From: a virus
Taxonomy: Duplodnaviria; Caudoviricetes
IMG/VR virus record: IMGVR_UViG_3300020460_000012
Reading direction: 5' to 3' (one strand)
DNA length: 64,000 nucleotides
The notes below the pieces were generated by a model, which was not told the origin of the DNA, searched no databases, and worked only from the letters and a program-made list of their open reading frames with translations. The first letter of the stretch is position 1. Each line of letters starts with the position of its first letter. Positions 60,978 to 63,073 of this stretch are shown here, in pieces. The translations under genes were made by a program, and so were the position numbers.

Positions 60978-61427
60978 CTATGCGTCTTCAGTGAAATCTG
61001 TATCGTCAGTACCTGCCTTAGTATCATCATCACCAGCTTCTTCAACTTGAACAGCACCGTCTGCTCCTGCAACCGTAAAGTTCCAAGAAATACTAGTACC
61101 GTCTAGTGCGTTTGAACCAGTAGCAGATGGTTGCTTTACAGTAACTTTTCTGCCTGCGATTTTTGATACACCATATGTTTCATCGTCATCACCTTTAACA
61201 GAAATAGTCATTTCTGTACCAGTTAATGCGGCTGGTAATTTACCAGTTACAAGTGTGCGATCATAGCTACCGCCGTCTTCTGTTGCACGTACTCTAAACT
61301 TCTTGCTACCAAGTTGTTTTACAATATGCCCTTCAACGACTGCTGATCCATCATGAAAGTTAACTTTTATTTCATTTCCGGAAGCTGTTGGCGTTCCAAA
61401 AAATCTTTTGTTTAGTGGTCTTCCCAT
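60978..61427 (-). CDS. Virion-associated protein
   Basis: MGRPLNKRFFG start; GATAAATA and AGGAG upstream. Confidence 0.6.
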   Translation of the reverse strand: MGRPLNKRFFGTPTASGNEIKVNFHDGSAVVEGHIVKQLGSKKFRVRATEDGGSYDRTLVTGKLPAALTGTEMTISVKGDDDETYGVSKIAGRKVTVKQPSATGSNALDGTSISWNFTVAGADGAVQVEEAGDDDTKAGTDDTDFTEDA

Positions 61428-61522
61428 TTGTTTTCTCCTTAATAAGTTGACGTTCTAGGTCTACGGGGTTGGATCCCCATAAGTCCTCATCTAGAGGCTC
61501 TCCTCTTGACATAGTATTTATC
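61428..61522 (-). promoter_or_regulatory. Late promoter plus structured 5' leader
   Basis: GATAAATA at 61515-61522; hairpins AGAGG-AGAG-CCTCT and TTATGGGG-ATCCAA-CCCCGTAG. Confidence 0.6.
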
Positions 61523-61530
61523 ATTAGATA

Positions 61531-61564
61531 CAAAAGAAAAAGGCCCGCTTGAGGCGAGCCTTTT
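61531..61564 (-). terminator. Intrinsic terminator of the ncRNA candidate
   Basis: Minus strand AAAAGGCTCGC-CTCAA-GCGGGCCTTTTTCTTTT; the U-G pair forms only on the minus strand. Confidence 0.85.
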
Positions 61565-61567
61565 AAG

Positions 61568-61785
61568 ATAAGCAAAGTAGGGAGGACTCGGTTATACCTC
61601 CAACCCCTCGACCGAGATGCCATTCTCAAATCCAGGGAACCTATTTCCGCTCGGTAGAGCGATGTGACTCAGCGTATTTCTACTACCAAGCCTGGGTACC
61701 ACCCCTAAACAGTCAAGTTCGACGCTCTGGTAAACGCCTCTTCCTTGCACTACAAACATTGACTAGCTAAGTCTTTGTTGCTTAT
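61568..61785 (-). ncRNA. Unassigned structured non-coding RNA candidate (218 nt)
   Basis: Own promoter and terminator, 8-bp terminal stem, multiple hairpins, about 48% G+C by hand count, no credible ORF. Confidence 0.7.
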
Positions 61786-61791
61786 GTTACT

Positions 61792-61819
61792 AATATAACA
61801 TCTTTATAATAAATGTCAA
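61792..61819 (-). promoter_or_regulatory. Sigma70-type promoter for the ncRNA candidate
   Basis: TTGACA-N16-TATATT with an extended -10 TG. Confidence 0.75.
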
Positions 61820-61840
61820 CCTCTTTTTTAAAAAAAAGTC

Positions 61841-61872
61841 AAAAAAATAGGTCCTATAAAAGGACCTATTTT
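61841..61872 (-). terminator. Intrinsic terminator of the major capsid gene
   Basis: 12-bp inverted repeat AAAATAGGTCCT-N5-AGGACCTATTTT plus a T run on the minus strand. Confidence 0.88.
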
Positions 61873-61897
61873 AATCTCGTATATTACGACAGTAATA

Positions 61898-63073
61898 TTA
61901 GCTAAAGCTAACGTTACCAGAAGTAATAGCTACTGCGCCGAGGTAATCAGCCGCGTTACCAAGAGACGAAGCAGTATTTGATAATTCAATATACCCGTAT
62001 CTTGTCATAAAGCTAACTGTTGGCTCAAATGTGGACGGATCCAACACAACGCCTGAGCTCATTAGCGGAATATATGGGCAATAGAATGCTGCCGCATCAG
62101 ACTCGCTTGCGCCTTTATAACCAACAAGTACGTTAGCATTGTCAGCCGCATATGTGTTTACATATACTTTCATAGCGTTGTTTAAAGTACCAACCATCTT
62201 AGTGTTAGTTGGAGCTTCGAATGAACCTTCAGTTGTTCTTGCGAACGCTGAAGTAGTTGCACTTTGTAGAATTGTAAGTGCAAATGGACTTACAACAGCC
62301 CAGTTACCTGCGCCTCTACGTGTACGCTGAGCGATTTGGTTTGACACTCTGTTGATTTGAACAGCTAATGCCGCATGCTCATCACCAACGAAAGTAGCAG
62401 TACCAGATACCGCCGCTTGGTCATATGTTTGACCAGCTGAACCTGCAAGAGTATTCAAGCTAGCAATAACCTCTTGGTCAATTTCAGCGGTAATTTCTTG
62501 TGCAAGAGCAGCCATAATTTCTGCTTCTACATCAATACCGTGCATTGACTGAGCGTCTTGAGCCGCTTCAAAAGTCCAGCGAGCTGATAGCTTTCTGGTT
62601 TTTGCTTCGACTGTTTGCTTCAAGATTTGGATTGATAGCTTGCTTCCACCAGCGCCTTCAAGCGTTGATGTATTATCAGCTTTGCCTGTTGTAGCATTAC
62701 CGGAATAAGCTTCCGCAATCTTGAATGGTGAAAGTGCTTCTTCACCTGCTGTAGCACCGGACGCACCTGAGCCTACAGTTTCTGCGTATCTTACACGCAA
62801 TGTGTGGATTTGACCCACTGGACCAGTCATCGGTTGAACACCAACAAGTTCGTTAGCAATAACGGTTGGCATTACACGTCTGATGACGGGTAAGATAACT
62901 CTGTTAAGAGTTGCGACATTACCGGCGGATGTTGTACCTGCAACAGCTGTCTCAGACAAATACTTGCGAGTATTTTCTAAGGTAGCACCCATTACAGCTT
63001 TCTTATTGCCTTGTAGGCCTTCCAAAAGTGCAGTTTTGGTATCCTGCCAGCGACTTTCTAATAGTTCTGACAT
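61898..63073 (-). CDS. gp23: Major capsid protein
   Basis: LPVIRRVMP, GVQPMTGPVGQIH, KTRKLSARWT, EITAEIDQE, AAFYCPYIPL, FMTRYG. Confidence 0.97.
   Translation of the reverse strand: MSELLESRWQDTKTALLEGLQGNKKAVMGATLENTRKYLSETAVAGTTSAGNVATLNRVILPVIRRVMPTVIANELVGVQPMTGPVGQIHTLRVRYAETVGSGASGATAGEEALSPFKIAEAYSGNATTGKADNTSTLEGAGGSKLSIQILKQTVEAKTRKLSARWTFEAAQDAQSMHGIDVEAEIMAALAQEITAEIDQEVIASLNTLAGSAGQTYDQAAVSGTATFVGDEHAALAVQINRVSNQIAQRTRRGAGNWAVVSPFALTILQSATTSAFARTTEGSFEAPTNTKMVGTLNNAMKVYVNTYAADNANVLVGYKGASESDAAAFYCPYIPLMSSGVVLDPSTFEPTVSFMTRYGYIELSNTASSLGNAADYLGAVAITSGNVSFS

Follow-up and report, generated by a model that had tools for sequence, protein, structure and literature searches.

The locus downstream of the major capsid gene

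The window is the whole stretch of 64,000 nucleotides of viral DNA that was analysed. On its minus strand, the major capsid protein gene of the Gp23 family (gp23) is followed by an intrinsic terminator, a sigma70-type promoter, a structured RNA and a second intrinsic terminator (Table 1). Downstream of this unit lie a conserved late-promoter-like GATAAATA, a freshwater-2 RNA (RF02980) that extends to the ATG of the next gene, and that gene itself, whose 149-aa protein matches nothing in Pfam, PHROGs or isolated phages. The T4 late promoter has the consensus TATAAATA, which the GATAAATA ahead of the 149-aa gene is taken here to resemble. Freshwater-2, on which a literature search turned up nothing, is present at this spot in all relatives tested, including those that lack the upstream RNA.

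No other TG-extended consensus promoter occurs in the 64 kb besides that of the RNA, and this one stands within a minus-strand late module. The predicted transcription start lies 7 nt after the -10 element. Consensus sigma70-like sites number only six in the 64 kb. The (G/T)ATAAATA motifs of the window lie on the minus strand in 13 of 14 cases, which fits a long late structural module.

A sequence-only reading of this DNA had proposed a stand-alone structured non-coding RNA gene with its own promoter (TTGACA-N16-TATATT) and its own terminator (61531-61564). All of its coordinates check out, and both elements were found where it had placed them. Its estimate of a core with about 48% G+C in an AT-rich genome is also correct, at 0.48 for 61566-61786 against 0.354 for the contig.

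The source is probably an uncultured marine jumbo phage, as judged from its sequence. The closest isolates by Gp23 are jumbo phages (287-469 kb) with 65-69% aa identity. The window contig, C77 (153,204 bp), is contained in C57:171486-324735 of the same bin at 99.92% identity. C57 has 335,231 bp and 10 tRNA genes with no terminal overlap, and C79 (12,519 bp) likewise duplicates part of it. The bin looks like redundant assemblies of an apparent jumbo phage beside bacterial contigs.

Table 1. Features of the locus, with positions in the window
Feature	Position	Strand	Remarks
Major capsid protein gene (Gp23 family)	61898..63073	-	upstream neighbour; PF07068 E 1.4e-98; phrog_138
gp23 intrinsic terminator	61836..61872 (stem 61872-61844)	-	12-bp stem and T tract; insulates the RNA gene from late read-through
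Sigma70-type promoter, TTGACA-16-TATATT	61792..61819	-	extended -10 TG; 11/12 matches
-35 element, TTGACA	61819-61814	-	followed by 16-nt spacer; A/T-rich tract upstream
Extended -10 TG	61800-61799	-	
-10 element, TATATT	61797-61792	-	
Predicted primary transcript, ~250 nt	61531..61785	-	from +1 at 61785 to the terminator T tract
manA-class RNA core, helices P0-P9	61568..61785	-	RF01745 match, own fold, covariation
P0	61785-61778 / 61575-61568	-	AUAAGCAA (61785-61778) pairs with UUGCUUAU (61575-61568)
P1	61777-61770 / 61764-61757	-	
P2	61753-61750 / 61580-61577	-	
P3	61747-61744 / 61717-61714	-	
P3a	61738-61733 / 61726-61721	-	
P4	61712-61707 / 61646-61641	-	
P5	61705-61703 / 61696-61694	-	
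P6	61692-61681 / 61676-61666	-	
P7	61661-61657 / 61652-61648	-	
P8	61637-61624 / 61617-61604	-	
P9	61601-61597 / 61585-61581	-	
L3	61727..61732	-	UACCAG; complementary to L5 (UACCA/UGGUA, 5 bp)
L5	61697..61702	-	GUGGUA; family consensus GUGGUG; complementary to L7 (GGUA/UACC, 4 bp)
L6	61677..61680	-	GAAA (GNRA) tetraloop; GAAA or GAGA in all 29 homologues
L7	61653..61656	-	UACC
L8	61623-61618	-	AUGGCA
L9	61596-61586	-	UAUAACCGAGU
Intrinsic terminator of the RNA	61531..61564	-	11-bp stem 61564-61538; T tract 61537-61531
Late-promoter-like GATAAATA of the next gene	61515..61522	-	kept in 23/28 contexts and in minimal loci without manA
freshwater-2 RNA (RF02980)	61425..61499	-	leader of the next gene, outside the manA unit; 55 bits, cut-off 49.9
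149-aa gene	60978..61427	-	downstream neighbour; 199 relatives in IMG/VR

Family membership and fold

On sequence grounds, the RNA is a divergent member of the described manA family (RF01745) and not a new RNA class. This assignment rests on a full-length match to the Rfam model and on homology to RNAs that score above the family cut-off. In a permissive cmscan of 701 nt (61300-62000), RF01745 matched 61571-61772(-) over model positions 1-192 of 192 with an E value of 7.7e-12 and 50.2 bits, which is highly significant though about 5 bits under the gathering cut-off of 55.2 bits. A scan of the whole assembly returned the match again (49.9 bits, E 7.5e-12). At Rfam gathering thresholds, no family was reported on 61531-61785, and the freshwater-2 RNA just downstream was the sole report.

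Several homologues stand above the cut-off. Locus L027, which matches the window RNA with an nhmmer E value of 6e-60, scores 60.0 bits on RF01745, and L042 scores 61.1 bits. Pelagibacter phage Mosig, the only isolated phage with a BLASTN match to the window RNA (75% identity over 235 nt), carries its copy in an unannotated gap, and this copy scores 64 bits. With the 80 IMG/VR loci fetched using the downstream 149-aa protein as query, 10 syntenic or related RNAs, including those of Mosig and L027, reach at least 55.2 bits.

The window RNA has the consensus structure of RF01745: a P1 hairpin, the closing P2, P3, a sub-junction P4 with P5-P7, then P8 and P9. It shares with the published manA motif (PMC2864571) the helix order and multi-stem junction, GUG after P2, an L5 of the GUGGU type, a GNRA L6 and an L7 of the ACC type. 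The cmscan alignment and the loop table also give an L9 of 11 nt between GGU and UCC, as in the motif, which likewise occurs in marine phages. The window RNA differs from the motif in its score, in an extra closing helix P0, in a longer P6 and in weak complementarity between L8 and L9. It also differs in its setting, a jumbo-phage-like genome behind gp23, and in that its own terminator bounds the RNA, which is therefore not in a 5' UTR. manA is catalogued as a cis-regulatory element of 5' UTRs, a type to which the window copy does not conform; since the discrepancy concerns context and annotation and leaves the fold untouched, it is no bar to membership. Under default filters, covariance model R1, which was built from the close subgroup, misses the canonical manA RNAs of P-SSM2 and P-SSM4, so the link to the canonical form rests on the Rfam model and the shared architecture.

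Other identities were considered. Further Rfam families gave only weak, chance-level matches on the stretch, and the one to ctRNA_p42d, at 25.9 bits, is the terminator itself. ARAGORN finds no tRNA or tmRNA in the window, in agreement with the sequence-only reading. It is very improbable that the RNA belongs to an undescribed family unrelated to known ones, or that the locus is a small protein gene. The lack of any family at gathering score would suit the former, but the full-length RF01745 match and the direct homologues above the cut-off contradict it. An ATG-started ORF of 55 aa (61592-61759) is present, but in 26 of the 28 other distinct homologues its start or frame is lost or stops are gained. 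The proposal of an undescribed RNA made in the sequence-only reading is thereby overturned, as far as sequence analysis reaches: Infernal against Rfam, the check it had named, found a known family, and the RNA is real but in substance not novel (50.2 against 55.2 bits).

The structure of the window RNA was written from the Rfam alignment, with the end-closing P0 and an extended P6 added. Loop numbering is inferred, with hairpins counted so that L6 is the GNRA loop. The segment 61531-61790 folds better than shuffled sequences, with an MFE z-score of -2.76. In a MAFFT alignment of 19 close homologues, 92.2% of cells are paired (38-49% in slid controls), and 38 of 74 pairs have changed on both sides. 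An alignment of 29 distinct sequences from two subgroups, fitted to R1, has 92.1% of cells paired (36-48% in slid controls), with compensatory changes on both sides in 62 of the 74 base pairs. The observed covariation was reached by none of 500 shuffles, and an independent MAFFT and RNAalifold run recovers P3, P4, P5, P6, P8 and P9. Homologues and covariation, to which the sequence-only reading had also looked as a check, are thus both present.

The window RNA is in the manA subgroup that carries the extra end-closing helix. P0 is specific to this closer subgroup A, has compensatory changes in Mosig, and is replaced in subgroup B by a long P1 hairpin. It corresponds to the pairing of AUAAGCAA with UUGCUUAU that had been proposed from the first transcribed base. 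Seven of the nine helices listed in the sequence-only reading match the covariation-supported fold: GACU/AGUC is P1, GUAG/CUAC is P2, GGCGUU/AGCGUC is P3a, GUA-GAAA-UAC is the tip of P6, CGCUC/GAGCG is P7, GAGA/UCUC is the inner part of P8 and GGAGG/CCUCC is P9. The other two, UGACU/AGUCA and CCAGG/CCUGG, are unsupported, and their bases are used by the covarying P4, P5, P6 and P8.

The complementary loops are plausible kissing loops, as far as their sequences indicate. Two complementarities noted earlier, UACCA/UGGUA (L3-L5) and UACC/GGUA (L7-L5), are kept throughout subgroup A; neither varies there, so neither yields covariation evidence. A third, CUCGGU/ACCGAG, is present here and lost in the close relatives L036, L069 and L077. 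L8 and L9 can form 2-3 bp in the window RNA and 3-4 bp in most of subgroup A. In subgroup B, these two loops covary, with four variants (CAGA/UCUG, GAGA/UCUC, GUG/CAC and AUGA/UCAU).

Genomic context and expression

Among 28 distinct close contexts, the promoter is kept in all 28, and the terminator and GATAAATA in 23 each. These terminators have at least 10 unrelated stem sequences, with covarying stems, beside an RNA that stays constant. Each starts 1-14 nt past the closed P0, with no overlap in any case. The terminator arm is no more complementary to the RNA within a locus (7.3 nt) than in mismatched homologue pairs (7.2 nt), so no conserved antiterminator of the riboswitch type is present. 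The window copy has no expression platform with an alternative pairing that overlaps the aptamer.

The minimal relatives L067 and L075 have only the gp23 terminator, GATAAATA and freshwater-2 in this gap and no manA, so the manA unit is an inserted cassette. Across loci L009-L083, the gap that runs from the gp23 stop to the 149-aa gene is a hot spot of small-cassette insertion. Its minimal form, in L067 and L075, measures 177-181 nt. Inserts in other loci are a glutamine riboswitch (RF01739) with a small ORF, small ORFs driven by late promoters, tRNA genes (L070) or the manA unit, and several loci hold the glutamine riboswitch and manA together.

The nearest relatives, L004 and L007, have flanks with 92-95% nt identity and the same promoter-terminator frame. 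Their manA core is 64% identical (window 61566-61786 against 2142-2363 in L004/L007) and is a subgroup B allele. More distant phages, including pelagiphage Mosig, have cores much closer to that of the window than those of L004 and L007. The sequence comparison suggests that RNA alleles are exchanged between phages inside the cassette.

A 15-nt core word matched at least 120 IMG/VR stretches, and 73 of the 80 loci among the matches listed carry the RNA. The matches listed comprise 59 distinct wider contexts, of which 57 have the promoter and 27 the terminator. The terminator occurs in 19 of the 25 contexts behind gp23 and in 8 of the 34 elsewhere among those matches. The canonical manA RNAs of P-SSM2 and P-SSM4 (182 and 184 bits on RF01745) start, like the window RNA, directly behind a strong sigma70-type promoter, here a perfect TTGACA-N16/17-TATAAT. 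Genes follow them without a clear terminator.

These promoters and the 57 of 59 contexts show, at the level of sequence, what is constant in the manA family: the RNA has a strong host-type promoter at its 5' end. The terminator-bounded, free-standing form is typical of the gp23-linked cassette. A leader role in the manA family is possible, since only 27 of 59 contexts have a terminator and manA stands directly before a gene, 14-16 nt ahead of the start codon, in Mosig and P-SSM2.

Two side observations concern other copies. In L121, L152, L157, L097 and about 20 other IMG/VR loci, subgroup A RNAs have no terminator; a conserved AT-rich element (TAAATAATAATGTCGA...ACAGACA) comes after them, with a Shine-Dalgarno sequence beyond it. 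This may be a conserved leader or a late-promoter arrangement. The annotated hypothetical ORF PSSM4_169.1 (P-SSM4 NC_006884 164884-165057; L091 1085-1258) lies nearly all within the 184-bit manA RNA (164829-165014) and is probably a mis-annotation.

Weinberg et al. (2010) regard manA as a cis-regulatory element and a probable riboswitch, with L8-L9 marked "pseudoknot?" (PMC2864571). Applied to this locus, manA would sense a ligand and thereby control whether transcription passes the terminator and continues into freshwater-2 and the 149-aa gene. A terminator right after the aptamer is a common riboswitch layout, and the 32 of 59 subfamily contexts without a terminator, among the matches listed, as well as the positions in Mosig and P-SSM2, agree with a leader. 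This account of the locus is nevertheless improbable. The spacing between P0 and the terminator, the wholly different terminator stems and the complementarity values given above all argue against it. Moreover, the downstream gene has a conserved late-type promoter and a different leader RNA, both kept where manA is absent, and the genes downstream of manA are unrelated across contexts.

It is still less probable that manA is a protective or processing module, a compact fold at +1 that stabilises early transcripts against 5'-end-dependent decay, with the terminator-bounded copy as a by-product or remnant. In all contexts, including P-SSM2 and P-SSM4, the RNA does begin within a few nucleotides of a strong sigma70 promoter, and half of the subfamily among the matches listed lacks a terminator. 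However, nothing downstream is left to protect here and in 23 of 28 close relatives. The core, with its roughly 200 nt, 62 covarying pairs and conserved loops, far exceeds the need of a protective hairpin, and the cassette is maintained, with its alleles exchanged as a unit.

Marine metatranscriptomes contain the RNA. Between 25 and 58% of the sampled words of 61531-61790 are present in 14 runs from about eight studies. In runs X1-X4, contigs of the RNA (61545-61785) are separate from those of gp23 (from 61944) and from those of the next gene (up to 61510), and no contig lies on 61789-61943 or on 61511-61544. The separation of RNA and gene contigs is a further point against control of the 149-aa gene by manA. 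A 155-nt contig of X3 is exact over 61632-61785 and ends at the predicted +1. An X4 contig covers 61545-61708, and its end at 61545 falls inside the terminator. The exact next-gene contig of X2 ends at 61510, about 5 nt past GATAAATA. Four further studies have contigs on 61568-61758 only, with zero on both flanks, and word depth on this segment reaches about 380 in a 15-Mb contig set.

The contig pattern fits a discrete, comparatively abundant RNA, with the limit that RNA ends, strand and level cannot be proved from assembled contigs and that RNA libraries can contain DNA. In relatives, contigs extend beyond the RNA, by about 40 nt on the upstream side (X2) or 110 nt on the downstream side (X8), and some phages therefore have read-through. 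No contig crosses 61789-61943 in eight metatranscriptome runs, and this, with the stem found at 61872-61844, agrees with the insulation by the gp23 terminator proposed in the sequence-only reading. Its central claim of a stand-alone structured RNA gene is borne out by the promoter and terminator of the close contexts, the covarying fold and the separate contigs.

Proposed function and relation to RNA assemblies

The locus probably holds a manA-class RNA as a self-contained transcription unit, whose free RNA would function in trans and probably multimerise. Host-type sigma70 RNA polymerase would start at 61785 from the extended -10 promoter, transcribe the 218-nt multi-helix core and stop at the intrinsic terminator, at about 61531-61537. 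The product would be a free RNA of about 250 nt, made early. The next gene would rely on a late-type promoter and a freshwater-2 leader of its own, so that manA would not act as its switch. The free RNA itself may be the functional product, acting in trans. By analogy with other members, it could multimerise through loop-loop kissing, for example between GGUA of L5 and UACC of L7. The roles suggested in the sequence-only reading (ribozyme, RNAP/sigma decoy, anti-defence sponge, assembly RNA) are guesses.

This analogy comes from a 2026 preprint (Ren et al., 10.64898/2026.07.01.735769). It reports that, in vitro and with RNA and Mg2+ at high concentrations, several manA RNAs assemble into a 60-mer cage, decamers and octamers. 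These closed assemblies are built from pentamers, which are held together by kissing loops (L5-L7', which is intermolecular, L8-L9' or L3-L8') and by a contact of the L6 GNRA loop. The contact loops L5-L7', L3-L8', L8-L9' and the L6 GNRA loop have counterparts in the window RNA, with 3-5 bp of complementarity. These structures come from cryo-EM of other family members. The preprint continues to class manA as a putative cis-regulatory element and reports no in vivo results.

A broader and tentative proposal, rather unlikely, builds on the same analogy. manA RNAs in general may be trans-acting phage products, abundant and free, transcribed from strong early-type promoters. In the infected cell they would self-assemble as shells or rings of RNA only, and these would serve to trap, scaffold or hide some component of host or phage. 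In cyanophages, the leader copies would represent this particle-forming module too, either released from the 5' ends of early transcripts or acting there.

GOLLD, ROOL and OLE are non-coding, often phage-borne RNAs that assemble as homo-oligomers made of RNA only (Kretsch et al. 2025, PMC12286853). They offer an analogy of kind only; they are much larger (~400-800 nt) and unrelated to the window RNA in sequence and fold. The glutamine riboswitch (RF01739) and freshwater-2 (RF02980) are modular RNA elements found in the same gap between gp23 and the 149-aa gene (p149) in relatives. Their folds differ from that of manA, and they are leaders placed directly before an ORF, whereas the manA unit is closed by a terminator of its own.

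Since 2010, manA has had the status of an orphan "riboswitch candidate", and the RNA-only cages reported in 2026 were described in vitro without a biological context. A manA gene bounded by a promoter and a terminator is undescribed in the manA literature found (Weinberg 2010, a few methods papers, a cyanophage genome paper and the 2026 preprint). Among uncultured marine giant phages, a large group has manA as a free-standing gene with a conserved host-type promoter and its own terminator. The locus yields constructs, from 61785 to about 61531, and loop mutants for tests of assembly and function. The free-standing organisation, the exchange of the cassette between phages and the separate detection of the RNA in ocean metatranscriptomes argue for the RNA itself as the product, and not for a switch of its neighbour. 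This architecture argues against the catalogued riboswitch reading of manA and bears on the recent cage structures.
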